DNA of 64,000 nt from an uncultured Candidatus Saccharibacteria bacterium (GCA_964549935.1 CAZJVT010000001.1:27922-91921); one strand, 5' to 3'. Counted from the first letter of the stretch, positions 31,445-63,792 are shown. Made by a program: numbers and translations. The notes: generated from the sequence alone by a model not told the origin.

Positions 31445-31648
31445 CTACATGTAGGGCTGGTAGTGCTCGATGATCGCACCGCCTCCGCGTACCCTGACGA
31501 GCGCGGCCTCCTTGATCGTGGAGTCAGAGTGGTAGCGCTTCCGGAACTTCTCGCTCGCGTCGTTGTCGGACGCGGCCAGGAATCCTTGAGGTGTCGCCAC
31601 TTTGCCGCCGCCTGCTTCGTGATACATGTCGGCTCGGTACCTGTGCAT
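31445..31648 (-). CDS. small hypothetical protein (67 aa) on a GC-rich islet with strong SD
   Basis: AGGAGGT sits 6 nt upstream of the ATG. GC3-rich codons contrast with neighbours. The stop lies in the palindrome CCCTACATGTAGGG. Confidence 0.35.
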   Translation of the reverse strand: MHRYRADMYHEAGGGKVATPQGFLAASDNDASEKFRKRYHSDSTIKEAALVRVRGGGAIIEHYQPYM

Positions 31649-31755
31649 CGGTGTACCTCCTGTAGCCCTTTTTATACTCCTGGCGTAGAATAAAGGCAAG
31701 CAAAATCCCTCCCCGCCGCAGGCGGTACTCCCTTTAGGAAAAGGAGAATAAAACA

Positions 31756-32631
31756 ATGAAAAAGCTCCTACTCATCGACAGCCACGCCCTCATCCACCGT
31801 ATGTATCACGCGATGGCACCACTTACGACGCCAGATGGGGAGCCGATTGGTGCCATCTACGGCTTGTCGCAGCTTTTGATGCGCATGATTACCGAAACGG
31901 TAAAGCCAGATTATGTTGCCGCCTGTTTCGATCGTCCGGAGCCGACGTTTCGTAAAGAGATGTTTGCGGAGTATAAGGCACATCGCGAGGCGACGCCGAG
32001 CGATTTGATTTCGCAAATTATCAAAGCCCGCGAGGTGTTTGCGCAATTTAAAATAAAAATGTTTGAGCTACCGGGATTCGAGGCGGACGATTTGATTGCG
32101 ACGCTCGCGACGAAACTTCATAACGAAAAAGATTTACAAGTTTCGATTTTAACCGGCGACCGCGATTTGCTGCAGCTGGTGCACGCTGATCACGTCGTCG
32201 TTGAGCTGTTTAAAAACGGGGGAGGTGAGACGATACATATGAACGAGGCGGCGGTCATTGAGAAGTACGGCCTCAATCCGCTGCAAATTGTCGACCTGAA
32301 GGGCCTCATCGGTGACCCCTCCGACAATATTCCGGGAATTCACGGCGTCGGCGAGAAAACGGCTACGCCGCTACTCAAAGAGTTCGGAACCGTCGAGGGG
32401 GTGTTTGAAAATCTCGTGATTGTGCCGGAGAAGGTGGCCAAAAAGTTCCGGGGGCACGAGGAGATCGCGCTGAAGTGTAAAAAGCTCGCCACGCTGGAGC
32501 GTAACGTGCCGATTTTCTTGGACTCACTCGAGGACTTAAAAGCATTGCCGCTCGACCGACCGGAGCTGATTTCGTATTTTGAAAAGCTTGGGTTTGTCTC
32601 GCTGATTCGGCGGCTGCGCGGAGAAAGCTAG
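31756..32631 (+). CDS. stand-alone 5'-3' exonuclease (Pol I N-terminal / FEN-like)
   Basis: LLLIDSHALIHRMYHA...GFEADDLIATLA...HhH motif. 291 aa with no polymerase domain. Confidence 0.75.
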   Translation: MKKLLLIDSHALIHRMYHAMAPLTTPDGEPIGAIYGLSQLLMRMITETVKPDYVAACFDRPEPTFRKEMFAEYKAHREATPSDLISQIIKAREVFAQFKIKMFELPGFEADDLIATLATKLHNEKDLQVSILTGDRDLLQLVHADHVVVELFKNGGGETIHMNEAAVIEKYGLNPLQIVDLKGLIGDPSDNIPGIHGVGEKTATPLLKEFGTVEGVFENLVIVPEKVAKKFRGHEEIALKCKKLATLERNVPIFLDSLEDLKALPLDRPELISYFEKLGFVSLIRRLRGES

Positions 32632-32666
32632 AGTTTCTGGCGAAATTCTGGTGGTATACTAATTCT

Positions 32667-33572
32667 ATGAATGCTCGCGCATCCTCGCGCCTTGTTGGTT
32701 TACTAAAAAAGCCGGAGGTGCAATTTTTCTTGATTTCGCTTATCCCGCTAATTGCGGTTTTTATTGTTACCAGAATCTATATTCCGGTAGAGCAGCAGCC
32801 CTTTATGGATGTCGTTTTGCTCGGCATGTTCGGGATTATTACGTATCAGATGATTTATTCGGTCTATATGCACGCAAAGCTGGCGGAACGGGAGCGGGCC
32901 TTTTTGAGCGTTTCGGCACACCAAATGCGTTCGCCGCTGACTGCGGTTAAATGGATTTTGTCGGAGATGGGTAAGAATGACAACAAGCCCGAGGAGCGCA
33001 AAGATTTAGCTCGGGTCGGGGATGTCGCGGTTACAAAGCTCAACAACATTATTGATGCGTTTTCGGCCATGGCTCGCGTTGATGAGGGTGCGACCGAGGA
33101 GCGCATGGCGAATATTGATATGTGCGAAGAGATCGAGAAGTCTGTTGAGGCTGCAGAGCCTGTCGGAAAGCAGTACGGCGTTGCCGTCCACTTTGAAGGG
33201 CCGTGCGAGGAGCTTTGGGTGCGTGCCAATCCGGTAAATCTGGAGATGGTTTTTTCGAATCTGATTAACAATGCGATTAAGTACAATCACCGAGGAGGAA
33301 TGGTCGCAGTTGGTGCACGCAAGGTTCACGGCGGGAGTCAGATTGAGGTGATGGTACGCGACACCGGTATGGGCATCCCGCCAAACGAACAGGGGAGGAT
33401 TTTTGAGCGATACTTCCGTGGTGCACAGGCGCAGCGGGTTAACGAGGCCGGTTCCGGACTCGGACTCCACTTAACCAAAACGATTATCGAGCAGCACGGC
33501 GGGACGATCTGGCTCGAATCAATCCATGGCAAAGGAACGACGTTTCACTTTACGCTTCCCACGACGAGGTAG
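32667..33572 (+). CDS. sensor histidine kinase (HisKA + HATPase_c)
   Basis: H-box SAHQMRSPLTAV, N-box NLINNAIKYN, G-boxes DTGMGIP / GSGLGL, and two N-terminal transmembrane helices. Confidence 0.75.
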   Translation: MNARASSRLVGLLKKPEVQFFLISLIPLIAVFIVTRIYIPVEQQPFMDVVLLGMFGIITYQMIYSVYMHAKLAERERAFLSVSAHQMRSPLTAVKWILSEMGKNDNKPEERKDLARVGDVAVTKLNNIIDAFSAMARVDEGATEERMANIDMCEEIEKSVEAAEPVGKQYGVAVHFEGPCEELWVRANPVNLEMVFSNLINNAIKYNHRGGMVAVGARKVHGGSQIEVMVRDTGMGIPPNEQGRIFERYFRGAQAQRVNEAGSGLGLHLTKTIIEQHGGTIWLESIHGKGTTFHFTLPTTR

Positions 33573-33601
33573 TAGATAGGGGGGCGGGGTTTGAATTTTT
33601 G

Positions 33602-33632
33602 CTGACTACTGTCTACTATCTACTGACTACTC
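33602..33632. repeat. heptamer array in inverted orientation (CTGACTACT...) before mutM, paired with partial forward copy GTAGTAGATAGG at 33569-33580
   Basis: The reverse complement reads AGTAGTCAGTAGATAGTAGACAGTAGTCAG. It forms a hairpin with the upstream copy across a GGGGGGCGGGG spacer. Confidence 0.5.
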
Positions 33633-33638
33633 TTTGCC

Positions 33639-34550: not shown

Positions 34551-34627
34551 TTCGCGCTCGGTAGTATTCTGAATCCGTTGGCTATTAATTGTTTTTGATT
34601 TTTTGTTTATCGTTTTTTATCACTGCT

Positions 34628-36271
34628 ATGTTCGGCTCAAAAAAGGAAACTAAATATATTTTCGTTGCTGGCGGTGTAATGTCTGCGATTGGCAAAGGCA
34701 TCACCGCCTCTTCTATTGCCAAAATTATGCAGGCGCGCGGACTTAAAGTCACCGCGCTTAAAATTGATCCGTATGTAAACGTAGACGCGGGCACGATGAC
34801 ACCGACAGAGCACGGCGAGGTCTTCGTCCTTGCTGACGGTATGGAGTGTGACCAGGACATGGGTAACTACGAACGCTTTCTAGACACCGACCTGACGAGG
34901 CTCAACTACATGACGACCGGCAGCGTCTATCTTTCTGTCATTACGAAGGAGCGCAATTTAGAGTACGGCGGCAAGAATGTCGAGGTGGTTCCGCACATTC
35001 CGAATGAGGTTATCGACAAAATTGATGCGGCCGTGGCGGCAACCGGCAGCGACGTTGCAGTTGTTGAGGTTGGTGGCACTGTGGGTGAGTATCAAAATAT
35101 CTTGTTCCTGGAGGCGTACCGTATTTTGAAGTTCCGCCACCCGGAGGACTGCGCTTTTGTTTTAGTTAGTTATTTGCCGGTTTTAAATGGCGAGATAAAG
35201 AGCAAGCCGACGCAGTATGCGGTCCGTTCGGTTAACGCGACCGGCATTCAGCCGGACGTCATCATCGCTCGTTCTGAGAGTCCGATTGATGACAAGCGCA
35301 AAGAAAAGATTGCCTTTAATTGTAGTTTGCATATCGAAGAAATTATTTCCGCACCGAACGCGAAGAGTATTTACGAAGTGCCGGTAACGTTTGAAGACCA
35401 GGGTCTCGGCGAACTGCTCGCCAAGAAGCTCGGCGTGGGCGGGCGCGACCGCGATATGAAGGAGTGGCGCGGACTCGTTGATAAAATCCGCAGCGCGACT
35501 AAGCCGGTTAAGATTGCTATCGCCGGTAAGTACTTCGCGACAGGTGAGTTTGTGCTAACTGATTCGTATATCTCGGTTATTCAGGCTATCGGTCACGCCG
35601 CATACCAGGCCGGGCACAAGCCGGACATCGAGTGGGTTAACGTTGAGGACTTCGAAAAGGACCCGAGCCAGCTTAAGCGCCTTGATCAGTACGGTGGCGT
35701 CATCGTCCCGGGCGGATTTGGTGATCGCGGCGTAGAAGGTAAAATCGCTGTCATCAAGTACTGCCGCGAGAACAAGATCCCGTACCTCGGCCTTTGCTAC
35801 GGTATGCAGCTGATGGTGGTTGAGCATGCGCGTAACATCGGTGGACTGCAGGGTGCACACACGACGGAGGTTGATCCGAACACTAAGTACCCGGTCATCG
35901 ATATTTTGCCGGAGCAGAAGGAGCTGCTCGCCAAAAAACAGTACGGCGCCTCGATGCGTCTTGGTAACTACCCGGCCACACTCAAGAAGGGAACGATCGT
36001 TTACGACGCCTACGGCAAGGAGGAGGTTATTGAGCGCCACCGCCACCGCTTTGAGGTCAACCCGGAGTACATCGAGCAAATTGAAAAGATGGGCCTCGTA
36101 TTCTCCGGCACCTCGCCAAGCCGTAAGTTGATGGAATTTGCTGAACTGCCGAAGGACAAGCACCCGTACTTTGTCGGTACCCAGGCGCACCCGGAACTTA
36201 TCTCGCGCCCACTTCGCCCGCACCCGCTCTTTGCTGGTCTCGTCAAAGCGGCGATTGACAGGAAGCTTTAA
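34628..36271 (+). CDS. pyrG: CTP synthase
   Basis: KYIFVAGGVMSAIGKGI N-terminus, a glutamine amidotransferase domain with GLCYGMQ, 547 aa. Confidence 0.9.
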   Translation: MFGSKKETKYIFVAGGVMSAIGKGITASSIAKIMQARGLKVTALKIDPYVNVDAGTMTPTEHGEVFVLADGMECDQDMGNYERFLDTDLTRLNYMTTGSVYLSVITKERNLEYGGKNVEVVPHIPNEVIDKIDAAVAATGSDVAVVEVGGTVGEYQNILFLEAYRILKFRHPEDCAFVLVSYLPVLNGEIKSKPTQYAVRSVNATGIQPDVIIARSESPIDDKRKEKIAFNCSLHIEEIISAPNAKSIYEVPVTFEDQGLGELLAKKLGVGGRDRDMKEWRGLVDKIRSATKPVKIAIAGKYFATGEFVLTDSYISVIQAIGHAAYQAGHKPDIEWVNVEDFEKDPSQLKRLDQYGGVIVPGGFGDRGVEGKIAVIKYCRENKIPYLGLCYGMQLMVVEHARNIGGLQGAHTTEVDPNTKYPVIDILPEQKELLAKKQYGASMRLGNYPATLKKGTIVYDAYGKEEVIERHRHRFEVNPEYIEQIEKMGLVFSGTSPSRKLMEFAELPKDKHPYFVGTQAHPELISRPLRPHPLFAGLVKAAIDRKL

Positions 36272-36360
36272 ATATTGTAGTCTATTTTTGTAAGTTAAGG
36301 TTCGCAATACTCGGAAACACCTGAGTGTTTCAGGTTTCGCCGGGATGCGGGGAGGGTCCG

Positions 36361-36882
36361 ATGAAAGGAAAGAAGGCTTTCGTGAAGCGTGCCGGCGGGC
36401 GCCTGCCCGACGTGACCAAGCTGGAGCTGCACAGGCTCAGCGAATCAGTCGGACGGCGAATCGACGTCGCTCTCAGTGAGCTGGGTCAGCCGACGCGGCA
36501 TCGCATGGTGGACGCGCGGGAACTCAAGCGGCTCACCGCAGCGGTCCTCGGCGGAGCTCTGCCGCCCAACCAGAAGGAGGTGGTGGATGGCTGGGCGAAG
36601 CTTCGTGCCCGCATCATCGGCCGCGGCAATTACCGATGCCTTCAGATCGGGGGCACGGTGATCAAGACGATGGAGTTCGACCACGGCGACAAGGGTGCTT
36701 GGTTTCGTGGAGGGTCGTGGGTCGGCAACGATGTGACGATCAACGACTACGTCCTCCTGCGCAAGCGGCCCTGCCGCTGCAAGAAGTGCCGGCCGGAGCA
36801 CAAGAAGGGCTTGGCTCCTCACCATCGCGAGCGAACGGGCAAGGAGGTGGACCAGTTCGGCATGCCGGCGGAGTTCTGCTAG
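36361..36882 (+). CDS. hypothetical Cys-rich protein on GC-rich islet (likely horizontally acquired)
   Basis: GGGGAGGG SD 4 nt before the ATG. Very high GC3 (gtg aag cgt gcc ggc ggg...). C-terminal CRCKKCRPEH motif. Followed by a strong terminator. Confidence 0.45.
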   Translation: MKGKKAFVKRAGGRLPDVTKLELHRLSESVGRRIDVALSELGQPTRHRMVDARELKRLTAAVLGGALPPNQKEVVDGWAKLRARIIGRGNYRCLQIGGTVIKTMEFDHGDKGAWFRGGSWVGNDVTINDYVLLRKRPCRCKKCRPEHKKGLAPHHRERTGKEVDQFGMPAEFC

Positions 36883-36901
36883 CGTTCGTATCGGCTCCCG
36901 G

Positions 36902-36935
36902 GCGGCTCCCGCCTTCGGGAGCCGCTTTGTTTTTA
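36902..36935 (+). terminator. rho-independent terminator
   Basis: gcggctcccgCCTTcgggagccgc hairpin followed by TTTGTTTTTA. Confidence 0.6.
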
Positions 36936-50075: not shown

Positions 50076-50588
50076 TTACTTTTTTGCGATTACAATCATC
50101 AGTCCGCCACGGCCGCCCGGGCCGATAGGACCCATCGGCTTGTAGGGGACGGTGATCATACCTAAAAACTCGTTGAGCTTGCCGCGCGCAAATTGCATGT
50201 TGCCTTTTTCGCGTCCGCGCAGCTGCATTAAAATTTCAACGGGGTGACCCTCACCGAGAAAGTCGACGATGCGGCCGATTTTCATTTGCAAGTCGTTTTT
50301 CTGTTCGCGCACACTGATTTGGATCTGCTTACTGCCACCAACTGCGCGTTGGGCGGCACGGCGCTTTTTTTCCATTTTCTCCTGCTGGTAGCGGAACTTG
50401 TCGTAGGCGATGATTTTGGTGATCGGCGGCACAGCCACTTCGTTGATAGCGACTAGGTCCATTCCTTTTTCCTTTGCAAGCTTGAGAGCGTCGCCGAGCT
50501 TCATTACGCCCAGATTTTCATCGAGTTCGTCAATGACGCGTACCTCCGGCGCGGTGATTTGGTGATTGATTTTGTGGGCGGGAATCAT
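50076..50588 (-). CDS. infC: translation initiation factor IF-3
   Basis: INHQITAPEVRVIDE...MDLVAI...KYQQ motifs and infC-rpmI-rplT operon order. Confidence 0.85.
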   Translation of the reverse strand: MIPAHKINHQITAPEVRVIDELDENLGVMKLGDALKLAKEKGMDLVAINEVAVPPITKIIAYDKFRYQQEKMEKKRRAAQRAVGGSKQIQISVREQKNDLQMKIGRIVDFLGEGHPVEILMQLRGREKGNMQFARGKLNEFLGMITVPYKPMGPIGPGGRGGLMIVIAKK

Positions 50589-50711
50589 TTAATGAAGAGT
50601 TTAGCAGGAAATTCGCCTTAAATCAATTGTTTGTGATAAAAAACAGAGAGCCGCCACACCGTAGTGTGAGCGCGTGGCGCTCTCCGGTGTAGCGGCGGTG
50701 TGCGAGAAGTG

Positions 50712-51176
50712 TCACACGGGGATCAGTCGCGCGATCATCCCGATGGTGACCGTGCCGGGTTGGATGACGCGGCAGGTGACACCGGCCCGCCAGTCGGGCC
50801 GCAGTGCCTTGAGCAAGCCAGGTACCTGTTCTTCCATCCGATCGCATGGCTTGGTCTCGCCGGTGATTTCGAGTACCACCCTAGACCCGATTTCGAGATG
50901 ACGACCGACGTGGGCCGGGCCGAAGGTGATGTTGCGCACCAGGAGATTGGCTCGGCGGGTCATCCAGCTCAGGTCGTGGTGGCCGATTTCTCGGCACGCC
51001 TGCTGCCAGCTCTCTTCCGAGAGGACAGTCACTTGGCGACTGGTCCTGAGGGTCCGGGCCCGATGATCACCTTCGAGGCCATGCGCATCGATGGCGACGC
51101 TGTTGAGCGCAATCATCGGGCCACGCTTCTCTCGGTGAGTTCCGATGCCGACCAGCGTCAGAGTTGCGATAGCCAT
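50712..51176 (-). CDS. MOSC-domain protein on GC-rich islet immediately downstream of tmRNA
   Basis: GDHRARTL...ETKPCDRM... MOSC-like motifs with a conserved Cys. GAGGT sits 8 nt before the ATG. The alternative start at 51200 cannot extend past the tmRNA 3' end at 51280. Confidence 0.5.
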   Translation of the reverse strand: MAIATLTLVGIGTHREKRGPMIALNSVAIDAHGLEGDHRARTLRTSRQVTVLSEESWQQACREIGHHDLSWMTRRANLLVRNITFGPAHVGRHLEIGSRVVLEITGETKPCDRMEEQVPGLLKALRPDWRAGVTCRVIQPGTVTIGMIARLIPV

Positions 51177-51279
51177 GTGTAGACCTCGAGTATGTGACAT
51201 TGCTTGCGAGTCGCTTGTCGAAGCGGTCGCAGCTGTAAAGAGCATTTCGCAAAGCTCCTTGCAGCTGCGACCTATTTGA

Positions 51280-51607
51280 GGTGGAGTTGGGGATATCGAA
51301 ATCCCGTCCAAAAGTTTCTGCAATAACAGTCTACAAGCTTAGGATCGAAACAAGTTCGAAGCGAATGAACTCTAAGTTTTAGTGATGCGCGTAGAGTTCA
51401 ATCGGCGCATCCTTATTCCCAGATATAACACCAGTATTCCGACTATGGGAAGTTATCGGACTGATGGCTTACGCTAGGCGTAGGCTAAAGCAAAATTGCT
51501 CTGACGAGTAAAGTTGGCAGTTTATGATTTTTGGATCAGATTTACGAGTTAATCCTGCTCGGCTTGCATGTTATTACAAAGAACGATTGTCGAAGCCTGG
51601 CAACCCC
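51280..51607 (-). ncRNA. ssrA: tmRNA (ssrA)
   Basis: Minus-strand 5' GGGGTTGCCAGGCTTCGACAATCG... and 3' ...GGACGGGATTTCGATATCCCCAACTCCACC. G3·U70 acceptor pair, T-arm GGATTTCGATATCC. Tag reading frame GCC AAC TTT ACT CGT CAG AGC AAT TTT GCT TTA GCC TAC GCC TAG at 51518-51474. Immediately downstream of smpB. Confidence 0.7.
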
Positions 51608-53899: not shown

Positions 53900-53932
53900 G
53901 CCGCCAGCTGATTGGGCGGCAATTTTATTTCT
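53900..53932 (+). terminator. hairpin + U-run between argS and ileS (terminator/attenuator-like)
   Basis: gccgccAGCTGATTGggcggc followed by aattttatttct directly before the ileS ATG. Confidence 0.35.
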
Positions 53933-56900
53933 ATGTTAAAAAATCTAAAGGAGTTCAAGTTGCCGGAGATAGAGGAGCAGGTGCTTAAGTTTTGGCAGGA
54001 GCACTCGATTTTTAAGCAGACGCTCGCGAAGAATAAAGGTAAAAAGAAGTACGTTTTCTTTGAGGGCCCGCCGACGGCTAACGGTATGCCGGGCATCCAC
54101 CACCAGCTCGCGCGTAGTTTTAAGGACATCATGCCGCGCTTTAAGGCGATGCAGGGTTACGACGTGCCGCGTAAGGCCGGTTGGGACACGCACGGTCTGC
54201 CGGTGGAGCTGCAGGCCGAGAAGGAGCTTGGGTTTAAAGGTAAGCAGGATATCGAAAAGTTTGGTATCGCCGAGTTTAATGCAAAGTGTAAGGAGCTTGT
54301 TTGGAAGTACCGCAGCGAGTTTGAAGGGGCGACGAATCGCCTCGGTTTTTGGCTCGACCTCGAGCACCCGTACGTAACTTACGAAAACAGCTTCATCGAG
54401 TCACTTTGGTGGGTCTACGCCCGCATCAACAAGCAGGGCTACTTAAAGAAGATGCACAAGATCCTGCCGTGGTGCACCCGCTGCGGTACTGCCTTGTCCT
54501 CGCACGAGTTGGCGCAGGGTTATAAAGAGGTGGAAGACGCTTCGGTGTATGTGAAGTTTAAAGTAAAGAAGGGACAGAAAATAGGTTCGTTTAAAGCGGA
54601 CGACAAAACATACATCTTAAGCTGGACGACCACGCCGTGGACATTACCGGGCAACTTGGCGCTCGCGGTTGGGGAGAAGATCGAATACGGCGCCGTTGAG
54701 GTTTCCGGCGAGCTCTTGATTCTCGCATCCGCTCGTTTCCCTAGCGTATTTCCCGATCCGGCGCTCTACGTTCTACGCTCTACGCTTAACGGATCCGACC
54801 TCGTCGGTCTCGAGTACGCTTCGCTCTTTGACGTGAAGTCGCTTAAGAGTAAGAAGTCTTACCACGTCTACCCGGCTGATTTCGTTACGACGACGGACGG
54901 TACCGGCGTGGTGCACACCGCCGTCATGTACGGTGAAGATGACTACGCACTGGGCAAAAAGATCGGCCTGCCGCAACACCACACCGTCGCTGAAACCGGA
55001 CACTTTACCAAAGAGGTGAAAGGCCTCGCCGGGGCGTACGCAAAATCCAAGACGACTGAAGAAAAGATTTTCGAACACCTTAAGGCTAAAAACTTCCTGC
55101 TGCGCACGGAGCCTTACAAGCACGAGTACCCGCACTGTTGGCGCTGCGGTACGCCCGTACTTTACTACGCGCGTGACTCTTGGTTTATCGAGATGAGTAA
55201 GCTGCGCAGCCAGCTGCTTAAGAACAACGACACGATTAACTGGACACCGTCGCACATTAAAGAGGGGAGATTCGGTGAGTGGCTCCGCGAGGTTAAGGAC
55301 TGGTCCATTAGCCGTGACCGCTACTGGGGCACCCCGCTGCCTATCTGGCAGAGTAAGGACGGCAAGCAGACGATGGTTGTTTCGAGTTTGGCGGACTTTA
55401 AAAAGTACGGGCACCACAGCGGCAACCGTTACTTCGGCATGCGCCACGGAGAGGCGACGCACAATTTGGTTAAGAAAAACGCCGGCGGCAAAGAAACTGC
55501 CGCGCTCCGTTCAGAGCTAACACCGAAGGGGATTATGGAGGCGCAGGCAGCGGCAAAGGCACTGAAGAAAAACAAGATCGACGTCATCATTGCCTCGCCG
55601 TATTACCGCACGCAGCAAACAGCGGCAATCGTTGCCAAGGAACTCAAAAAGAAAGTTGTATACGACAAGCGTCTTGGCGAGATTAATACCGGCATCTTTA
55701 ACTGGCAATCAATGGAGGCTTACTACGCCTGGTTCCCTAATAAGAAAGATCGCTGGGCGACTGCTCCGGAGAAGGCTGAAAATTGGAATGCAGTTCGTGC
55801 TCGTGTCGTTGAGGCGATGCGGAGCTTCGACAAGAAGTATAAGAATAAAAACATTCTCATCATTAGCCATGGAGATCCGCTCTGGATTTTAGATGGAGCG
55901 ATGCGCGGCTTTGCCGACCATGAGTACGTCGAAGAGGCATTTTACCCGGAGATCGCGACTCCCTTTGAGCTCGAACCGCCAGTATTGCCGTTTGATGATG
56001 GAGGGAGGATGGACCTGCACCGGCCGTATGTCGACCGCATTGTTTTGCGCGATCCGAAGACGAAAAAAGAGCTGCACCGCGTTAAAGACGTCGGCGATGT
56101 TTGGTTTGACTCGGGCGCGATGCCGTATGCTTCGCACAACTTCCCGTTTGCCCAGGGAGTAAAGCGTGAGGACGCGCAGAACGACAAGGCGGTCGCCGAG
56201 GCCTTTAAAAAGATTGATTTTCCGGCGGATTATATCGCGGAAGGCGTAGACCAGACCCGCGGTTGGTTTTACACCCTGCTGGCTATCTCGACCACGCTCG
56301 GACTGCCGGCCGCTTACAAAAATGTCATCTCTGTCGGCATCATTGGCGACAAGAACGGGCAGAAGATGAGTAAGAGTAAAGGTAACATTGTCGATCCGAT
56401 GATGATTATGAATAAGTACGGCGCCGATGTGCTGCGTTGGTACTTCTACACGGTCAACGACGCCGGTGATGCGAAAAACTTCGACGAGGCCGACCTCGGC
56501 AAAGTTACGCGTCGCTTCGTCATGATTCTATATAACTCTTTCTTGTTCTGGAGCTCGTATGCAAAGGGAGGCACCGCTAAAGACGCTTACAAGTCCGAAA
56601 ACGTTTTGGACAAGTGGATTTTGGCGCGGCTGCACGAGGTCATCGCCGAGGTGACGCGCATGCTCAACCGTTACGAGATTGGCAAGGCGGCGCTCCTGAT
56701 TGAGCAGTTTACCGATGACATGAGCCGTTGGTACATCCGCCGCAGCCGCGACCGATTCCAGAGCAACGCCCGCGGGGGAGACAACGAGGCGGACTTCTTG
56801 TCGGGCAGCGCGACGCTCCACGAGGTCCTAATGCAGCTTTCCAAGCTCTTGGCGCCCTTTATGCCGTTTTTCAGCGACGCGCTGTATAAGTCACTTGGCG

Positions 56901-57463
56901 GGCAGCAGGATTCAGTACACCTAGAGGAGTTTCCGGTGGGCGACGCGACGGTGGCAAACGCCGATCTGATCAGCGGTATGGCCAAGGTGCGCGCCGCTGC
57001 AGGAGCTGCTTTAGCTGCTCGTACCGAAGTCGGTATTAAGGTCAGGCAGCCATTGCTCAGCTGGAAAATGAAAGACATTAGTTTGCAGGGGCAGGAGCAA
57101 CTTATAGCTATTCTAAAAGACGAAATCAACGTTAAAGAGATATTATTTGATTCTTCTCTTGCTGTGGACAATGAGCTCAACGCGACAATTACGCAGCAGC
57201 TTAAAGAGGAGGGCACTGTGCGTGAGTTAGTTCGTGCGATTCAAGGTCTGCGCGCGGAAGCCGGGTACGCGATGGGCGACAGCATTGTACTGATGCTTGC
57301 CGGCAGTCAGGAGTTTAGTGATCTTATCCAGCGCCACTCGGTGAACTTAAAAAAGTCAGTGAATGCTAAGACGATTGAATTAAAGAAAGGGGAGAAGGTG
57401 GACGTGCAGCTGGATACAAAAGTTGAGGAGTCTCCGGTTTGGATTGGTTTGCGGAAGATTTAA
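53933..57463 (+). CDS. ileS: isoleucine--tRNA ligase (type 2) with inserted histidine-phosphatase (PGAM-like) domain
   Basis: PPTANGMPGIHH (HIGH), KMSKSKGN, editing domain and a DVWFDSGAMPYAS motif. A ~200-aa RHGE...ISHGD histidine-phosphatase domain is inserted at ~55411-56012, between WQSKDGK and DLHRPYVD. Confidence 0.85.
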   Translation: MLKNLKEFKLPEIEEQVLKFWQEHSIFKQTLAKNKGKKKYVFFEGPPTANGMPGIHHQLARSFKDIMPRFKAMQGYDVPRKAGWDTHGLPVELQAEKELGFKGKQDIEKFGIAEFNAKCKELVWKYRSEFEGATNRLGFWLDLEHPYVTYENSFIESLWWVYARINKQGYLKKMHKILPWCTRCGTALSSHELAQGYKEVEDASVYVKFKVKKGQKIGSFKADDKTYILSWTTTPWTLPGNLALAVGEKIEYGAVEVSGELLILASARFPSVFPDPALYVLRSTLNGSDLVGLEYASLFDVKSLKSKKSYHVYPADFVTTTDGTGVVHTAVMYGEDDYALGKKIGLPQHHTVAETGHFTKEVKGLAGAYAKSKTTEEKIFEHLKAKNFLLRTEPYKHEYPHCWRCGTPVLYYARDSWFIEMSKLRSQLLKNNDTINWTPSHIKEGRFGEWLREVKDWSISRDRYWGTPLPIWQSKDGKQTMVVSSLADFKKYGHHSGNRYFGMRHGEATHNLVKKNAGGKETAALRSELTPKGIMEAQAAAKALKKNKIDVIIASPYYRTQQTAAIVAKELKKKVVYDKRLGEINTGIFNWQSMEAYYAWFPNKKDRWATAPEKAENWNAVRARVVEAMRSFDKKYKNKNILIISHGDPLWILDGAMRGFADHEYVEEAFYPEIATPFELEPPVLPFDDGGRMDLHRPYVDRIVLRDPKTKKELHRVKDVGDVWFDSGAMPYASHNFPFAQGVKREDAQNDKAVAEAFKKIDFPADYIAEGVDQTRGWFYTLLAISTTLGLPAAYKNVISVGIIGDKNGQKMSKSKGNIVDPMMIMNKYGADVLRWYFYTVNDAGDAKNFDEADLGKVTRRFVMILYNSFLFWSSYAKGGTAKDAYKSENVLDKWILARLHEVIAEVTRMLNRYEIGKAALLIEQFTDDMSRWYIRRSRDRFQSNARGGDNEADFLSGSATLHEVLMQLSKLLAPFMPFFSDALYKSLGGQQDSVHLEEFPVGDATVANADLISGMAKVRAAAGAALAARTEVGIKVRQPLLSWKMKDISLQGQEQLIAILKDEINVKEILFDSSLAVDNELNATITQQLKEEGTVRELVRAIQGLRAEAGYAMGDSIVLMLAGSQEFSDLIQRHSVNLKKSVNAKTIELKKGEKVDVQLDTKVEESPVWIGLRKI

Positions 57464-57500
57464 AAAGGTGAGACCCCGGCCGGAGCCAGGGTCTCGTACC
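57464..57500. terminator. bidirectional terminator
   Basis: gagaccc-cggccggagcca-gggtctc hairpin, with an A-run on the plus side and a T-run on the minus side. Confidence 0.5.
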
Positions 57501-57534
57501 TCTGGTCGGCGCGGGGTCGGCGCTAGGGGAAGCC

Positions 57535-57717
57535 TTAGCCGCCCGGCTTCTTCTTCGGCGGGGGCGGAAGGGGTTCGAAGTACCGGTCCTTGTGCGGCGT
57601 CCCCGTGGGAGTCGTGGAGAGATCGCCGAGATCGAGCCCAGCCGTCTTGATCGGCTTCTTGCTCTCCGCAGGCCAGGGGACTCCTGCGCCGTCTTCGGGG
57701 GAATTCGTGTGACCCAT
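57535..57717 (-). CDS. small hypothetical protein (60 aa) on GC-rich islet with strong SD
   Basis: AGGAGG sits 9 nt before the ATG. Sequence MGHTNSPEDGAGVPWPAE...PPPPKKKPGG. Very high GC3. Confidence 0.3.
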   Translation of the reverse strand: MGHTNSPEDGAGVPWPAESKKPIKTAGLDLGDLSTTPTGTPHKDRYFEPLPPPPKKKPGG

Positions 57718-57837
57718 GCTTCGATGCCTCCTGTCAGATTTGCTCCCTCCCCGAAACACTTCGGGGCACCAAAACAATTTGCCATAGCTATGCAAAATGT
57801 CAAACCCCGCAAAAGCGGGGTTTGAAGTTGAGGTCAG

Positions 57838-58839
57838 TTAATTATGTACGCAGTATTTACCTCGACTATCAAGATTCGCGCAGAGGGTGTAGACGAAAGC
57901 GTCCCTTTTCTCGTCGTAGCGAAGCACATACTCATATTCTTTACCGGTTATCGGGTCGAGTGTGTCTTCTGTTTCACCGCCGCCCCATAGATTTTTTAGA
58001 GCAGCGAGTTGTGCAACCGGCTTGCTTCGGTTGAGCATCATTTGTAAAGCATTTAAATCGAACATCCGGACGTAGTCTATCGGTGGTACGCCATGTAGTC
58101 GTGCTTCTTCGAGGGTCAGTTGAGTAACGGCTTTCGCGCTCATAAAATCTTTATATCGCTCAGGTAGCTGGCGTTTCAATTCGTCCAACATGTTTTCATT
58201 GACGCGCTGCTTGTATTTCTCCGTTGCTTTAGCCTGTTCTGACTTGCTGGGGGCAATTACCCATGCGAATGGTTGGCTATATTCTCCATTATAAAAACCG
58301 CCAAGCCGACGACGAATTATTCCCCATTTAACTACGTCGGTATGCGATGGCCCGTGTGTCCAGCAACCGAGACCAAGCGGGCCACATTCTAAAAAGGTTT
58401 GAACGCCTCTTTCTAGCTTGTATCCACTCGGAGAGGGCTGTTTCTGTCTGGCATCGCTTACTGTAAAGTTCTGTGCTTCTGTCCAGGAGATCGGCTCAAA
58501 GGTATTCGAGCGCATATTATAAAGTAATAGCCGCGGGTTTCTCATTAACGTCGCGCTTAGTACTTTTGATTCGTCGCGGGTTATCTTGTTATTTTCGATG
58601 GTGTACGTTGCGCCACCGTAGGCGTCATTATTTAGAGAATAAATAATACTCTCCGGGAAGGCAAAGAGACTGAAAGGGCGAATGTCGGTAGTGAAGGTTA
58701 AAAAACATAGTGCTAATACTAATAAAATACGTATAACCCCTTTTAGGCTTGATTTTGGCTTAGCACTTAGGGCTTTGTCGGTGCCAGTTTCCGCTTTTGG
58801 CTCAATGGTGTCGGCGAGATTTTTGGCAGGCTCTAACAT
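57838..58839 (-). CDS. hypothetical membrane-anchored protein (333 aa)
   Basis: N-terminal transmembrane helix (IRILLVLALCFLTF). No recognisable domain. Confidence 0.45.
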   Translation of the reverse strand: MLEPAKNLADTIEPKAETGTDKALSAKPKSSLKGVIRILLVLALCFLTFTTDIRPFSLFAFPESIIYSLNNDAYGGATYTIENNKITRDESKVLSATLMRNPRLLLYNMRSNTFEPISWTEAQNFTVSDARQKQPSPSGYKLERGVQTFLECGPLGLGCWTHGPSHTDVVKWGIIRRRLGGFYNGEYSQPFAWVIAPSKSEQAKATEKYKQRVNENMLDELKRQLPERYKDFMSAKAVTQLTLEEARLHGVPPIDYVRMFDLNALQMMLNRSKPVAQLAALKNLWGGGETEDTLDPITGKEYEYVLRYDEKRDAFVYTLCANLDSRGKYCVHN

Positions 58840-58840: not shown

Positions 58841-59821
58841 TTAGGCGATTAGCCCGACTTTCTGGTAGGCCTCTTTGAGTTTAGCGCTGGCAACCTTGTT
58901 GGCCTTTTTGGCGCCGGAGGCGAAGACTTTCAGGGCCTTTTTCGGGTCTTTCACTAGCTCCATTTTCTTTTTACGAAACGGGGCTAGAGCGTTAACGATG
59001 ACCTCGGCGACCGCAGCTTTGAACTGGCCGTAGTTTTTGCCGGCAAACTCTGTTTCAAGAGCGGCGACGGTCTTGCCCGAGAGGGTGCTGGTAATCAAGA
59101 GGAGGTTGCTGATGCCGGGTTTGTTTGCCTCATCAAACTTAATTTCGCTGCCGGAGTCGGTAACGGCGCTCATAATTTTCTTTTTAATCATCTCCGGTTC
59201 GTCGTCTAAAAACAGGCAGCCGCTCGGTTGTGACTTGCTCATCTTCTTCATCGGGTCGGCGAGTGACATCACGCGGGGGAGCTCGGTGTGCTTTGCCTTT
59301 GGTTCGACGAAGGTTTCACCAAAACGGCCATTAAACTTTCGAGCGATGGTGCGCGTGAGTTCGAGGTGTTGGTCCTGGTCATTACCAACTGGCACAAAAG
59401 CGGCGCCGTAGAGAAGAATGTCGGCGGCCATTAGGACGGGGTAGGTAAAGAGACCCGCGTTAGTCTCCATATGGTCAGATTTGTCTTTGTATTGAGTCAT
59501 TCGCTCAAGTTCTCCCATGGGTGTGATCGTGTTAAAAATCCAAGCAAGCTCGCTGTGTGCCGGAATGGCGGATTGGATAAAGAGGGTAGACTTGCGCGGG
59601 TTGAGTCCGGCGGCGAGGTAGCTGGCGGCTAGGTCAGCAATTTGCGCGCGCTTTTCCTCCGGCGTGTAGCCTTCGGTAAGCGAGTGTAGGTCGGCAATGA
59701 AAAAGTACGGCTCGTATTCGCCGCTGTTTTGCAAATCAACAAAGTTTTTGAGAGCTCCGAGGTAGTTGCCGATGTGGAGTCGTCCTGACGGCTGGATACC
59801 GGAGATAATGACGGGTTTCAT
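58841..59821 (-). CDS. trpS: tryptophan--tRNA ligase
   Basis: ISGIQPSGRLHIGNYLGA (HIGH) and KMSKS motifs. 326 aa. Confidence 0.85.
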   Translation of the reverse strand: MKPVIISGIQPSGRLHIGNYLGALKNFVDLQNSGEYEPYFFIADLHSLTEGYTPEEKRAQIADLAASYLAAGLNPRKSTLFIQSAIPAHSELAWIFNTITPMGELERMTQYKDKSDHMETNAGLFTYPVLMAADILLYGAAFVPVGNDQDQHLELTRTIARKFNGRFGETFVEPKAKHTELPRVMSLADPMKKMSKSQPSGCLFLDDEPEMIKKKIMSAVTDSGSEIKFDEANKPGISNLLLITSTLSGKTVAALETEFAGKNYGQFKAAVAEVIVNALAPFRKKKMELVKDPKKALKVFASGAKKANKVASAKLKEAYQKVGLIA

Positions 59822-59858: not shown

Positions 59859-59903
59859 TATACGGATTCTAGCGTAAAAAGCTTATAAATTCTAGGGATA
59901 AGG

Positions 59904-59925: not shown

Positions 59926-59943
59926 TTTTGTCATTTGGCGAGG

Positions 59944-59987
59944 CCCTTAAAAGGACAAACCGCCGGAACCTTGTGGGTACCGGCGGC
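59944..59987 (-). terminator. rho-independent terminator after desaturase gene
   Basis: Minus strand reads GCCGCCGGTACCCACAAGGTTCCGGCGG followed by TTTGTCCTTTT. Confidence 0.5.
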
Positions 59988-60010
59988 ACGACTCGTTGCT
60001 TGCTCCTTGG

Positions 60011-60979
60011 TTAGTTTTTTCTTGGTTTGCCCTTGAGGTTCCACGTCAGACCGACGAAAGACATCAGCCAGATGATGAGTCCGGTCGGGTCGATCGTCAG
60101 CGGGCGGCACCGGTACTGGCTAGGGTACGTGTGGTGTTCGCCGTGGTCGTGATTTTCGCCAAAGGCAATCACAGCGACTCCGGCGAGAATGAGCTGCACC
60201 CCGACGAAACCCATGCCGTAGACGAAGATGAGTACGAGCCCCGTCAACATCACCAGCATCACGAGCCAGTTCAGAACCGGCAGATTGCGCGCCGGGCCGT
60301 TCCAGTGGGCGAAGCTGTTGGTGCTAAACACCAGGTGCAGGAAGGGCGGGAGGCGGATGAAGAAAATCGGGAAGACCGCCCAAGCGTCGCCCCAGCCCCA
60401 ATAGGCGATGCCGCAGGGCAGGAGGATCGCCGAGCAGAACGCCAGGGGCAGGTAGTACTTCTCCTGCGCCCTGAAGACCCACTTCTTTTTCAGGTCAGCA
60501 ACATTCTTCGTGTTGCCCTCCACCTTGCCGATGCGACAGGGCAGCTCCCAGTGGGCGAAATAGAGCCCGATGAGCCCCGCTCCTTCTATGAAGGGATAGG
60601 CGTCGAGCTCGGTGTTCGGGTGCTTGTGGTGGTATCGGTGCTTTGCTGTCCAGCCGATGGCCGGGCCCAGCATTGCCGCGGCGCCGAAGAACAGGAAGAG
60701 TGAGAGGAACAATGGCCTTGTCTCGTACGAGCAGTGCGAGATCAGCCGGTGGTATCCACCGGTAATCGAGAATCCGCTCGCGAAGAACATGAACCAGGCC
60801 AGCCAGACTGTCTCCCGGGGGAGTTCCAGCCGGTGAGTTGCGTAGAGCCAGACCCCTAGGGCACCCATGAGATGGATGCCGTAGAGGAAGGACGTGCTCG
60901 TCCAGTTGCGCGGCAACTTCTTCAGGTCTTCGAGGGTCACCTCCCGCAACGTTTGCGCGGAGGTAGCGATGTCGCTCAT
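60011..60979 (-). CDS. membrane fatty-acid (acyl-lipid/acyl-CoA) desaturase, GC-rich, SD-bearing
   Basis: His boxes HRLISH and HRYHHKH plus transmembrane helices. GGAGAGGAGC SD sits 7 nt before the ATG. High GC3. Confidence 0.6.
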   Translation of the reverse strand: MSDIATSAQTLREVTLEDLKKLPRNWTSTSFLYGIHLMGALGVWLYATHRLELPRETVWLAWFMFFASGFSITGGYHRLISHCSYETRPLFLSLFLFFGAAAMLGPAIGWTAKHRYHHKHPNTELDAYPFIEGAGLIGLYFAHWELPCRIGKVEGNTKNVADLKKKWVFRAQEKYYLPLAFCSAILLPCGIAYWGWGDAWAVFPIFFIRLPPFLHLVFSTNSFAHWNGPARNLPVLNWLVMLVMLTGLVLIFVYGMGFVGVQLILAGVAVIAFGENHDHGEHHTYPSQYRCRPLTIDPTGLIIWLMSFVGLTWNLKGKPRKN

Positions 60980-61200
60980 CGGTAGAGCTCCTCTCCGCGT
61001 GTAGGCGGTGGTTGGGATTGATGGGAAAGAACACAAGAGAGCCTCTTTATTTTACCGCCTTTCGGTTTCAATAGATATGCTATTCTAAGCACATGGAATC
61101 CCGTTAGAAATGGGGATGTACTATCGGGTATTGCATGTTGATTAGATTACAGATTTTATGAAGCACCAAAACAGGATTAACATTTTTTATTTCTAACGGG

Positions 61201-61545: not shown

Positions 61546-61553
61546 CTACTTTA

Positions 61554-62093: not shown

Positions 62094-62125
62094 ATCAAAA
62101 AGCCCCTTACGGGGCTTTTTGATTG

Positions 62126-62974
62126 TTACTCGACTATCGTTATCGTTCCGGTGTTGGCCGTGTTGTAGTTGTCGCGATACGAGTATTTCCCAGTGCTTAA
62201 TTTATTAGTATCGAGAATGTACGAGGCGCCGAGCGAGAGGACGTGCTCGCCGCCGAATGCGGCACTGTAAATTGCATGACTAATGATATCGTCGTTTGTA
62301 AATATTACAGGGCTACCTTTCGGAATCGTGATTGCATTTGGCGTAAACATTCCGCCTTTCATAGTAATCGTGTAGCTTTGGCCAAAGCTGACCGGGACGT
62401 TGGCTTCAAAGCGGACGGCGAACATAGCCCCTTGCGCATCTTTGAGCGGTTGGTCGCTGCCGGTATTTAATATCTTATTGCTGTCTGTATCCGCATAAAG
62501 AGTCGCATAGTAGATGCCGGCGGGTGAGAGCGGAATATTAATAACAACATTTTTGTGCGCACCGCGGGTCAGAATCGGGCTGTAGGCAACAACTGAACCC
62601 GGGATCTCCTTCGCTCCGTCATGAGCGACTGCGCGGATTGCAACGAACCCTGCTTTCTCAAGATTAGCGACCGCTACCGTCATCTTTGTCCCAGGTTTTT
62701 GATTCGTGACCTCCAGAGCATTCTTGACAGTTGGTGCAGTGTTCACCGGCTTAGGAACCGGCGGGAATGGAGCAGTTGACGTACTCACTGTCGGCGCAGG
62801 AGGCAGGCCCGATGCGGGCTCTTGCGGCGTACTGCTTGGACGCATTGCGAAAATAATAATGATGACAAGCGCGGCAACCAGCACACCCCAAACTAGATTT
62901 TTATTTTTCATAATAGTAATTTGTTCTTTTAGTAAGTATACGGCATAAAATGGGAGGGGCCGGTAGCCTCCCAA
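62126..62974 (-). CDS. secreted hypothetical protein, possible cupredoxin-like C-terminal domain lacking Cu ligands
   Basis: Signal anchor, a Pro-rich linker, and C-terminal ITIPKGSPVIFTNDD...HAIY. Confidence 0.35.
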   Translation of the reverse strand: MGGYRPLPFYAVYLLKEQITIMKNKNLVWGVLVAALVIIIIFAMRPSSTPQEPASGLPPAPTVSTSTAPFPPVPKPVNTAPTVKNALEVTNQKPGTKMTVAVANLEKAGFVAIRAVAHDGAKEIPGSVVAYSPILTRGAHKNVVINIPLSPAGIYYATLYADTDSNKILNTGSDQPLKDAQGAMFAVRFEANVPVSFGQSYTITMKGGMFTPNAITIPKGSPVIFTNDDIISHAIYSAAFGGEHVLSLGASYILDTNKLSTGKYSYRDNYNTANTGTITIVE

Positions 62975-63018
62975 GGAAGTGCTATCCGGCCCTTGTCGTG
63001 TTGCGGGAAGCGGGCTCG

Positions 63019-63792
63019 CTAGACGACGGCGAGGGCCTCCTTCCGAGGTGCCAGTTCGGCTCGCAGTCGCTCGAGCACCTGACCGTGGATCTGGCAGACT
63101 CGGCTCTCGGAAAGGCGAAGGGCCTTTCCGATTTCCTTCATCGTGAGGCTCTCGAAGTAGTAGAGTTCGAGGACATCACGTTCCTTGTCGAGCAGCGTGC
63201 CGAGCACGATGCTTACGGCTTCGTACTTCTGCATCTGCGCGAGAGCGTCCGGGTGGCGTTGGTCCACGAGCGAGAGGAAGCGGACGTTCTCGCGTCCGCC
63301 ATCCTCCTCGTCAACCCTCGTCGTCTCACTCAAGGAGTAGATCGCGAGACGCGCCACGTCGCGCTGAAGCGCCTCGTACTCCTCCTCCGTGATTGCGAGG
63401 TGGTCCATGATCTCGCCGGCGGTCGGGACCCGCCCGAGTCTGGCCTGCAGCTTGCGAACAGCAGTTCCGAACTTCTGCGCCCGGCTACGCACCAGGCGCG
63501 GCACCCAGTCCTTGCTGCGGAGTTCATCGATGATGCTGCCGCGGATACGGATCGAGCAGTACGTCTCGAACTTGATGTTGCGCGTGAGGTCGAACCCCTC
63601 AACCGCGTCCATCAGGCCGACTACGCCCGCGCTTCGCACCTCTTCGAGGTCCACGCACCGCGGCAGGCGTTCCGCGATTCGCTCGGCGAGGTAGTCGACG
63701 AGCGGCAGATACGCCTCGATGAGGCGGTTGCGCAAGTCGACCTCTTCGGTGCGCTTGTACTCCACCCACATCGCTTCGAGCTCCAGCGTCTT
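63019..63792 (-). CDS. FliA/WhiG-type (group 3) sigma-70 family sigma factor, GC-rich, SD-bearing
   Basis: Region 2 YLPLVDYLAERIA...GLMDAVEGFD, region 3, and region 4 LTMKEIGKALRLSESRVCQIHG. GGAAGGAGGG SD 4 nt before the ATG. Set in AT-rich noncoding flanks. Confidence 0.6.
   Translation of the reverse strand, partial: KTLELEAMWVEYKRTEEVDLRNRLIEAYLPLVDYLAERIAERLPRCVDLEEVRSAGVVGLMDAVEGFDLTRNIKFETYCSIRIRGSIIDELRSKDWVPRLVRSRAQKFGTAVRKLQARLGRVPTAGEIMDHLAITEEEYEALQRDVARLAIYSLSETTRVDEEDGGRENVRFLSLVDQRHPDALAQMQKYEAVSIVLGTLLDKERDVLELYYFESLTMKEIGKALRLSESRVCQIHGQVLERLRAELAPRKEALAVV

Follow-up and report, generated by a model that had tools for sequence, protein, structure and literature searches.

Six genes with GC-rich third codon positions (GC3), each led by a Shine-Dalgarno (SD) sequence, stand apart in composition and translation signals as a discrete class within an SD-less Patescibacteria (CPR) chromosome. 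One of them, encoding a FliA/WhiG-family sigma factor, is, as judged by sequence comparison, a xenologue from a Planctomycetota-like GC-rich lineage. It is probable that all six were acquired as single genes from GC-rich bacteria, inserted one by one into CPR spacers, and now persist as insulated cassettes. Among them, horizontal gene transfer (HGT) is proven for the sigma gene alone, and for the other five we infer a foreign origin.

The backbone genome and its translation starts

The backbone of the window (i.e. the whole 64-kb stretch of DNA that was analysed) is a Patescibacteria chromosome around the replication origin. Its anticipated identity as a reduced genome was confirmed by TrpRS, which is at most 63% identical to homologues in CPR MAGs (the closest relative is thus distant), and by the smpB-argS-ileS-trpS synteny common to the window and its CPR relatives. 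As expected for an SD-less backbone, an SD-like motif was found in only 3 of 57 curated genes. A TATACT/TATAAT-like -10 box precedes 15 of the 57 core genes, ending 4-12 nt (most often 6) before the start codon, and because these boxes lie so near the start, leaderless mRNAs are suggested for part of the core; boxes of the TATACT type are 6-9 nt from the ATG. Core genes are translated without SD sequences, many of their mRNAs appearing leaderless. The third codon positions of the backbone, called AT-richer in the original prediction, are balanced and not AT-rich, at about 58% GC (GC3 0.579 +/- 0.073, maximum 0.73, n=57 curated genes).

Composition and anatomy of the six islets

All six predicted ORFs are real: they lie on the expected strands and show coding-type periodicity (GC3>GC1>GC2) in the proposed frames, a signal absent from the alternative frames. 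Their third positions are dominated by G/C, with GC3 values, in positional order, of 0.81, 0.82, 0.75, 0.80, 0.83 and 0.83, and they do not overlap at all with those of the 57 backbone genes (Mann-Whitney U=342 of 342, p=1.5e-8). The log-likelihood ratio of codon usage under a GC-rich donor model versus a backbone model ranges from -0.01 to +0.16 for the islets, compared with -0.53 +/- 0.16 (maximum -0.205) for backbone genes and +0.21 to +0.39 for Planctomycete-like genes; by GC3 as well as by codon-usage score, all six islets thus exceed every backbone gene, which is the atypical composition expected of HGT. Local GC content is not specific to the islets, as values of 0.65-0.68 (150-nt windows) also occur in several stretches of the backbone.

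An SD-like motif precedes 6/6 islet genes versus 3/57 backbone genes (Fisher p=1.2e-6). The canonical GGAGG type proposed for all of them holds for four, which are strong, the remaining two being weaker (GAGG in the MOSC gene and GGAGAGGAG in the desaturase gene). Every islet gene is followed by a stable hairpin (-24 to -35 kcal/mol) and a U-run, although GC-rich terminators had been foreseen for several only. GC content changes sharply at each terminator and some 20-40 nt before each ATG. The common anatomy consists of a promoter in an AT-rich spacer, a short GC-rich SD leader, a GC3-rich ORF and the terminator; the islets are single genes of 0.3-1.0 kb, scattered over 32 kb. A window-wide scan revealed no further stand-alone SD-led ORF of such high GC3, and none in the 1-31 kb region.

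The sigma factor and its donor clade

Islet 6 (62947..63809, minus strand) comprises an AGGAGG SD (63804-63809), a gene for a 259-aa FliA/WhiG-family sigma factor (63019-63798) and a terminator (62947-62992). The start had been placed at 63792, and this has to be corrected to the ATG at 63798. Very AT-rich spacer surrounds the islet, with a cupredoxin/DUF7282 gene (62126-62911, minus strand) downstream of it. Its FliA-like annotation was upheld by TIGR02479 (224.5 bits versus a cutoff of 189.6). Sigma70 regions 2, 3 and 4 (PF04542, PF04539 and PF04545) together span residues 32-253 of the 259 and region 1.1 is lacking, which is the architecture of the group-3 (sigma-28) factors. FliA/WhiG sigmas recognize TAAA-N15-GCCGATAA-type promoters and are associated with an anti-sigma factor as well as with genes for flagella or development. 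Unlike in such systems, the copy described here resides in a CPR genome, and neither flagellar genes nor a TAAA-N15-GCCGATAA-type promoter upstream of any gene were found within the 64-kb window.

The protein is 74-78% identical (amino acids) to a clade encoded on contigs of 69-76% GC, and its nucleotide identity to one member, L084, is 77% and confined to the coding sequence. Of its closest relatives, those whose contigs carry one or more neighbouring genes (L084-L088 and L109-L111) are all in GC-rich contexts. The donor-clade context is conserved (pyrG-DUF1844-sigma-kdsA): most of these contigs have DUF1844 ahead of the sigma gene and, if long enough, kdsA behind it, with L087 as an exception. 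The donor-clade genes have SD sequences and GC3 of 0.91-0.98, and all named relatives belong to the Planctomycetes/Planctomycetota. In the phylogeny, the window sigma forms, on a long branch, the sister of the donor clade, whose members are 82-94% identical to each other. Since it branches outside that clade and has GC3 of 0.83 versus 0.91-0.98, the transfer was not very recent. T-run terminators were absent from the donor sigma genes and, therefore, the terminator of islet 6 originated, or was recruited, on the recipient side. Among the six, a foreign phylogenetic placement was obtained for the sigma factor; the best relatives of the MOSC protein (about 51% identity, mixed-GC contexts) and of the desaturase (35%) are distant.

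A second sigma gene of the same donor clade, with its own terminator and GC3 of 0.81, was found on L105, an AT-flanked 1.2-kb contig of about 50% GC. Its product is 72% identical to the donors versus 67% to the window sigma, and its sole neighbour is a weak YtxH-like fragment.

The desaturase and MOSC genes

Islet 5 (59949..60996, minus strand), upstream of trpS (58841-59821, minus strand), comprises the SD GGAGAGGAG (60988-60996), a gene of GC3 0.83 for a 322-aa SCD-type delta-9 membrane desaturase (60011-60979) and a terminator (59949-59987). The protein has no match in Pfam/NCBIfam even at E<=1, and among 5.8 billion proteins it has 43 homologues at 28-37% identity (best full-length match 35%), almost all of which carry PF00487. 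The few named ones come from Planctomycetota, Bdellovibrionales, JGI metagenomes and one fungus. Its assignment as a desaturase is nevertheless correct: it matches the SCD1 structures 4ZYO and 4YMK (E=6e-15), and all four metal-binding motifs (HRLxSH, HRxHHK, NSxAH and the C-terminal HxxHH) are kept, with HRLISH, HRYHH, NSFAH and HGEHH aligning to SCD1 4ZYO. It differs from PF00487 desaturases in falling below Pfam detection and being at most 37% identical to any of the 5.8 billion proteins, and from SCD1 in having about 20 extra hydrophobic residues between NSxAH and the last His box.

Islet 3 (50639..51194, minus strand) lies between the tmRNA gene (51279-51607, minus strand) and infC (50076-50588, minus strand). 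It contains the MOSC gene (50712-51176), a weak GAGG (51184-51187), a CATACT -10-like box (51189-51194) and a terminator (50639-50696; -34 kcal/mol, z=-5.6). The MOSC label proved right (PF03473, residues 42-146, 52.1 bits versus a gathering score of 22.7). The gene has the lowest GC3 (0.75) and the weakest SD of the six; the best metagenomic relatives of its product are 44-52% identical, on contigs of 39-71% GC, and a sequence search among solved structures returned no relative.

The orphan ORFs

Islet 1 (31380..31661, minus strand) is antisense between tsaE (30879-31361, plus strand) and a 5'-3' exonuclease gene (31756-32631, plus strand). An AGGAGG SD (31656-31661) precedes a 67-aa ORF (31445-31648; GC by codon position 0.60/0.44/0.81), followed by a hairpin and U-run terminator (31380-31431; -28.5 kcal/mol). 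The same ORF is called as a 67-aa gene on an independent Logan contig, L106, 100% identical to the window. Islet 4 (57460..57732, minus strand) consists of an AGGAGG SD (57727-57732), a Pro/Lys-rich 60-aa ORF (57535-57717; GC by codon position 0.62/0.56/0.79) and a terminator with its stem at 57470-57495. It is convergent with ileS, and the terminator, which scores best in the 44-64 kb region (11 pairs, 8 of them G-C), has a U-run extending to the ileS stop codon. Neither the 67-aa nor the 60-aa ORF matched Pfam/NCBIfam; a protein search with both returned nothing, not even self-matches, and is uninformative for the two.

Islet 2 (36349..36934, plus strand), immediately 3' of pyrG (34628-36271), comprises the SD GGGGAGGG (36349-36356), a 173-aa ORF (36361-36882; GC3 0.82) with a Cys/Lys-rich C-terminus, and a terminator (36892-36934; z=-3.5). 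Among 5.8 billion proteins the 173-aa product matched only itself, HMMER run exhaustively against 1.84 billion representatives yielded only a spurious low-complexity repeat protein, and no plasmid or viral relative was found. The single-sequence AlphaFold2 model is unusable (pLDDT 38).

The same junctions in related genomes

No homologues of the six islet genes were found in 80 related loci. Orthologous positions were compared at two junctions. Of the six islet sites, only that of islet 4 (ileS|trpS) is at a junction of conserved synteny; this junction is empty in L006 and occupied by different genes in L004, L005, L007 and L009. Related CPR genomes thus carry differing SD-led cassettes at the same junctions, some of them GC3-rich. 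In L004, shared junctions hold three genes of high GC3 (0.73-0.85) that end in terminators, one with a TTGACA/TAGAAT promoter and an SD. The SD is not purely a foreign mark, because the small SD-led junction genes of L005 have ordinary GC3; across relatives the association of SD with GC3 is not significant (p=0.2).

Origin of the islets

According to the favoured explanation, single genes would have been inserted one at a time into intergenic spacers, the sources being GC-rich bacteria and, for the sigma factor, a Planctomycetota-like lineage. DNA uptake followed by illegitimate recombination would be the route, presumably with no mobile-element machinery involved. A retained insert would become an insulated monocistronic cassette, its promoter in AT-rich spacer of the recipient type, and the terminators, as a recipient-side feature, would probably block read-through into adjacent core genes. 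Such cassettes may turn over at a few permissive junctions. The desaturase might remodel scavenged lipids, and the sigma factor might provide an extra transcription programme.

The original prediction of a recent transfer from one high-GC, SD-using donor stands with regard to the foreign, GC-rich Planctomycetota-like ancestry of the sigma factor; that the transfers were recent or shared one donor is not shown. The homology search for donors recovered the sigma donor clade, with only 35% identity for the desaturase, about 51% for MOSC and no relative for the 173-aa ORF. A single shared donor is unlikely, because these three lack close relatives though the sigma donor clade is well sampled. Further points count against the favoured explanation: a donor lineage was identified for only one gene of six, the SD-led genes of L005 show ordinary GC3, and, if the islet genes have long been diverging in the recipient, neutral amelioration should have lowered their GC3, yet it is not lowered, and the L105 sigma gene also retains its high value.

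A more specific scenario, which we consider unlikely, is that a GC-rich Planctomycete-like organism serves the CPR bacterium as host and that host DNA has been captured repeatedly, so that the islets record the host. The sigma donor clade and some of the distant desaturase relatives are Planctomycetota-like or Planctomycetota, the greater similarity of the L105 sigma to the donors than to the window copy suggests repeated transfer by the same route, and in one groundwater study a Planctomycete was co-abundant with several CPR bacteria (PMC7906910). However, the well-sampled sigma donor lineage contains no relatives of the remaining five genes, the donor-type contigs that were inspected stem from studies other than the runs holding this genome, and L105, being so short and with one weak neighbour, is not assignable to CPR. 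Moreover, HGT indicates a shared habitat and not physical association. The fuller form of this scenario, with one physical partner, a sigma factor running a host-like programme and orphans acting as fast-evolving interaction factors, is slightly less credible still.

About equally doubtful is the view that the islets are long-resident native CPR genes and not traces of recent import, selection maintaining their codon usage and leaders, for instance to serve regulation or a separate regime of translation. It would account for the recurrence of the promoter-SD leader-ORF-terminator design in relatives, for terminators made by the recipient and for the high GC3 persisting in two sigma copies that have diverged so far; the orphans and the divergent desaturase would also fit long independent evolution. 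Against it stand the clear derivation of the sigma from a non-CPR, GC-rich clade, the variable cargo at shared junctions together with the lack of orthologues in related loci, and islet codon usage intermediate between backbone and donor, as expected under partial amelioration. Nor is there a known mechanism by which a genome of 51% GC would keep GC3 at 0.8.

It is very improbable that the islets were moved by a dedicated system, whether an element resembling an integron or an island, a phage, or one inserting at the tmRNA gene. Like genomic islands at tRNA/tmRNA genes and integron cassettes, the islets are atypical intergenic DNA, uniform single ORFs each ending in a hairpin, one of them (MOSC) directly 3' of the tmRNA gene, a classic integration site, and a TraG/VirB4-like ATPase cluster is present at 6-15 kb of the window. 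Unlike them, they have no integrase, att direct repeat or conserved attC-like site, and, unlike integron arrays, they are dispersed. About 50 window proteins scanned contained no integrase, transposase or recombinase domain, the tmRNA 3' end has no repeat beyond the MOSC gene, no boundary motif other than G-rich SD-like strings is common to the six islets, and three cargo proteins lack relatives in 2.9 million viral contigs (islet 2 also in plasmids).

Chimeric assembly or binning contamination by GC-rich reads, conceivable for short GC-rich segments on a metagenome-assembled contig (357,676 bp), can be practically dismissed, as each segment is bounded exactly by SD leader and terminator with CPR DNA on both sides, and the junctions of islets 1, 2, 5 and 6 recur at 100% identity in five Logan contigs from three separate runs (those of islet 6 in three independent assemblies; the 5' end and junction of islet 5 on contig L001).

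Relation to known transfers and significance

Single-gene HGT from other phyla into Patescibacteria is documented (PMC12455944), so the islets, a clear but fairly ordinary case of HGT, do not overturn current views. They resemble the MetaCHIP-type surveyed transfers in being single foreign-phylum genes in a streamlined CPR genome, and the distance of the sigma from its donor clade (22-26%) is similar to the donor-recipient divergence typical of that survey (about 24%, not recent). The surveyed transfers are mostly CPR-to-CPR and Planctomycetota are absent among their donors (PMC12455944), whereas the sigma described here is Planctomycetota-like; furthermore, the imports in the window are marked by an SD-led start against a leaderless or SD-less core and are built uniformly as insulated cassettes, and for half of them no source is detectable.

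The islets illustrate, in a clean and well-delimited case, how genes enter an ultra-small genome with SD-less or leaderless translation as insulated units in a few permissive spacers, and the contrast in translation initiation may serve as a practical marker of imported genes in such genomes. Members of this CPR lineage are not generally known to make fatty acids, and the desaturase could let such a bacterium remodel scavenged lipids. The Planctomycete-like origin of the sigma factor is a testable hint on the ecological partner of this uncultured CPR lineage, to which the second, probably independent copy on L105 adds. If capture from one physical host were true, it would allow sequence-only host assignment for uncultured CPR bacteria.

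Sequence context and composition of the cassettes

The window has a GC content of 51%, and the minimum of its cumulative GC skew (at ~21-22 kb) adjoins dnaA (19279-20928) and a probable dnaN (21145-22257); the window therefore spans a replication origin. Its housekeeping set comprises ruvB, tsaE, fpg, pyrG, ruvA, a Mur ligase gene, infC, rplT, smpB, argS, ileS, trpS and the genes for PBP1, yidC and uvrD, and is accompanied by one tRNA, a tmRNA and a TraG/VirB4-like ATPase cluster. The top matches of TrpRS were MAGs of Patescibacteria/CPR (identity ≤63%), and of the smpB-argS-ileS-trpS order at least ileS-trpS is conserved in the five closest relatives (loci L004-L007 have all four genes; an smpB match was not found in L009 in this comparison). 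The backbone is thus that of a CPR bacterium to which the species-representative collection offers no close relative.

Two features of this backbone may be mentioned. The cluster at 5714-14826 (+) encodes proteins of 248, 669, 799 and 241 aa without a Pfam family, followed by the TraG/VirB4-like ATPase (13018-14826, +), and resembles type IV secretion-like clusters known from Patescibacteria. In the ileS product (53912-57463, +), a histidine-phosphatase domain (PF00300, residues 510-660) interrupts the catalytic domain; since the IleRS proteins of the relatives are similarly long (1143-1206 aa), this insertion may be clade-wide.

Six ORFs (encoding proteins of 67, 173 and 60 aa, a MOSC protein, a desaturase and a FliA/WhiG sigma factor) depart from the backbone. 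All are real, as coding periodicity was found in the predicted frames and was missing from the alternative ones, although the start of the sigma ORF had to be corrected from 63792 to 63798. Their GC3 (0.75-0.83) does not overlap that of 57 curated backbone genes (0.579 ± 0.073, maximum 0.73; p=1.5e-8), whose third positions are balanced and not, as the original prediction had it, AT-richer. In codon-usage log-likelihood ratio the six (-0.01 to +0.16) are intermediate: the backbone scores -0.53 ± 0.16, and genes of Planctomycete-like type score +0.21 to +0.39. At 4-12 nt ahead of the start, 6/6 of them have an SD-like motif vs 3/57 backbone genes (p=1.2e-6), the weaker motifs being GAGG (MOSC) and GGAGAGGAG (desaturase). 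Downstream of each of the six lie a stable hairpin (-24 to -35 kcal/mol) and a U-run, as had been claimed for several, and the GC content shifts abruptly ~20-40 nt ahead of each ATG and at each terminator. A window-wide scan did not reveal any other stand-alone ORF with these features. Five of the six (31445-63798) lie on the minus strand, which is the lagging strand right of the origin, and most core genes there have the opposite orientation.

Translation initiation in the core genes

A TATACT/TATAAT-like box ending 4-12 nt upstream of the start codon (mode 6 nt) was found in 15 of the 57 backbone genes; at a distance of 6-9 nt from the ATG, -10 boxes of this type are found e.g. at the starts at 1717, 14873, 32667, 38898, 49390, 52061 and 52108. 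This spacing suggests that leaderless mRNAs are widespread in this CPR lineage. Most other backbone genes have spacers rich in stop codons (CTAGCTA, TAGTTAGC, ACTAACTA) and lacking an SD ahead of the start. Many closely spaced core genes have spacers of this type (CTAGCTA, TAGTTAGC or ACTAACTACTA in place of an SD; starts at 10897, 11653, 12039, 30317, 30879, 33639, 49784 and 59821), and the spacers may be all-frame stop/re-initiation elements or a non-canonical ribosome-binding signal. Besides composition, the mode of translation initiation therefore sets the cassettes apart from the core.

Origin of the sigma factor

The product of the sigma gene (63019-63798) passes TIGR02479. Its 15 nearest relatives share 74-78% aa identity with the window copy and 82-94% among themselves, and all examined contexts in which the contig includes one or more neighbouring genes had a GC content of 69-76%. 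In most of these contexts a DUF1844 gene lies upstream and, where the contig is long enough, kdsA lies downstream (contig L087 being an exception), and a 2-Mb contig shows that this arrangement persists even at 68% identity. Wherever a homologue is named, its annotation is Planctomycetes/Planctomycetota. In the tree, the window sigma forms a long branch attached to the GC-rich clade. Its DNA identity to the relative on the donor-type contig L084 is 77%, limited to the coding region, and its GC3 is 0.83 vs 0.91-0.98 in the donors. On these comparisons, the transfer of the sigma gene into the CPR genome is solid, though not recent.

A second FliA/WhiG gene of the GC-rich donor clade (GC3 0.81, with its own terminator) was identified on contig L105 (1-1170; JGI 3300020129), which at 1.2 kb is too short to be assigned to CPR. 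Upstream of this gene the DNA is AT-rich and contains a TATACT box, and the neighbouring gene fragment has a GC3 of 0.61. This copy shares 72% identity with the donors vs 67% with the window copy, and only 4 derived residues are common to both, which points either to a second acquisition from the donor lineage or to a very early split; independent acquisition is probable. The donor sigma genes have GTG/TTG starts and no T-run terminator, whereas the window and L105 copies begin with ATG and have a hairpin and a U-run downstream. This distribution argues that the terminator is a recipient-side addition, as the promoter in the AT-rich spacer probably is.

It was also considered that this sigma factor drives the other islets; this was rejected, as no sigma-28-type promoter was found upstream of any gene in the window.

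The remaining cassettes

The product of the desaturase gene (60011-60979, -) is, by its alignment to 4ZYO (all His boxes, E=6e-15), a genuine SCD-type delta-9 desaturase. The protein is extremely diverged (best identity 35% among 43 matches) and without a match in Pfam. About 20 hydrophobic residues that SCD1 lacks (LPVLNWLVMLVMLTGLVLIFVYGMGFVGVQLILAGVAVIAF, within residues ~229-270) follow the NSxAH motif and precede the last His box, and probably form one more membrane segment.

The MOSC protein (50712-51176) passes PF03473, and its closest relatives are 44-52% identical and encoded on contigs of 39-71% GC. The gene is located directly 3' of the tmRNA gene (51279-51607, -; Rfam 105 bits, missed by ARAGORN), which itself lies directly downstream of smpB and has its own hairpin (29-nt arms, 51218-51279). 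A tmRNA-targeted island was rejected, because neither an att repeat nor an integrase was present.

The 173-aa ORF (36361-36882) had no homologue among 5.8 billion clustered proteins, and 1.84 billion representatives, scanned exhaustively with HMMER, yielded a single spurious hit, the low-complexity tandem-repeat protein P0166, which was dismissed. Its structure prediction (pLDDT 38) was set aside. For the 60- and 67-aa ORFs the protein search was uninformative, as it missed even the queries themselves. The orphans were also considered as donor genes read antisense or out of frame; this was rejected, since they show GC1>GC2, the sense-frame pattern.

Corresponding junctions in related genomes

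No homologues of the six proteins are encoded in 80 related loci. The corresponding junctions are nevertheless variable: ileS|trpS is empty in L006 and occupied by other genes in L004, L005, L007 and L009. In L004 (a related CPR MAG; 1789-4275) these encode an inositol monophosphatase, an unknown protein and a Polysacc_synt_C fragment (GC3 0.73-0.85); a hairpin/T-run terminator follows each of the three. The middle gene is preceded by a TTGACA/TAGAAT promoter and by an SD, AAGGAGG. The small junction genes of L005 and L009 are SD-led; that of L007 has no SD and an ordinary GC3. A general association of SD with GC3 in the five relatives was not significant (p=0.2, with a crude start-calling method), and GC3 is ordinary in some of the junction genes. 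SD use therefore characterizes the accessory cassettes of this clade in general, of which only some are marked by high GC3.

In the window, the same junction holds, beside the 60-aa ORF, a 333-aa gene (57838-58839, -) without a Pfam or NCBIfam family, whose GC3 (0.46) is among the lowest in the window; it is possibly a second acquisition at this site, with a low-GC source.

Proposed route of acquisition

The original prediction was recent acquisition of all six genes from one high-GC, SD-using donor. For the sigma factor, transfer from such a lineage is demonstrated. For the other five, a foreign origin, argued from composition and context, is plausible. Neither the recency nor the single donor found support, the latter being rejected because only the sigma factor has close relatives in the Planctomycete-like lineage. 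Integron-like or MITE-like cassettes were rejected, the only motif common to the six flanks being a G-rich SD-like string (E about 0.2). The window contains no recombinase, transposase or phage genes. A phage or plasmid origin was likewise rejected: the 173-aa ORF, the desaturase and the sigma factor have no relatives in IMG/VR, and the first of these has none in PLSDB. Chimeric assembly was rejected on the strength of five contigs from three independently assembled runs, which are 100% identical to the window over the junctions of the 67-aa, 173-aa, desaturase and sigma cassettes.

We propose that foreign DNA would have been taken up and inserted into spacers by illegitimate recombination, and that only inserts turned into insulated monocistronic units would have been retained. 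Direct evidence for co-occurrence of donor and recipient was not found, as other studies were the source of the donor-type contigs examined; a published hint is the co-abundance of Planctomycetes and CPR (PMC7906910). Single-gene HGT into Patescibacteria has been described previously (PMC12455944), and the present case thus joins a known phenomenon. Its interest lies in how cleanly the SD-led imports are set apart from a leaderless or SD-less core, in the insulation of each cassette, apparently built by the recipient, and in the pointer to a possible Planctomycete partner.
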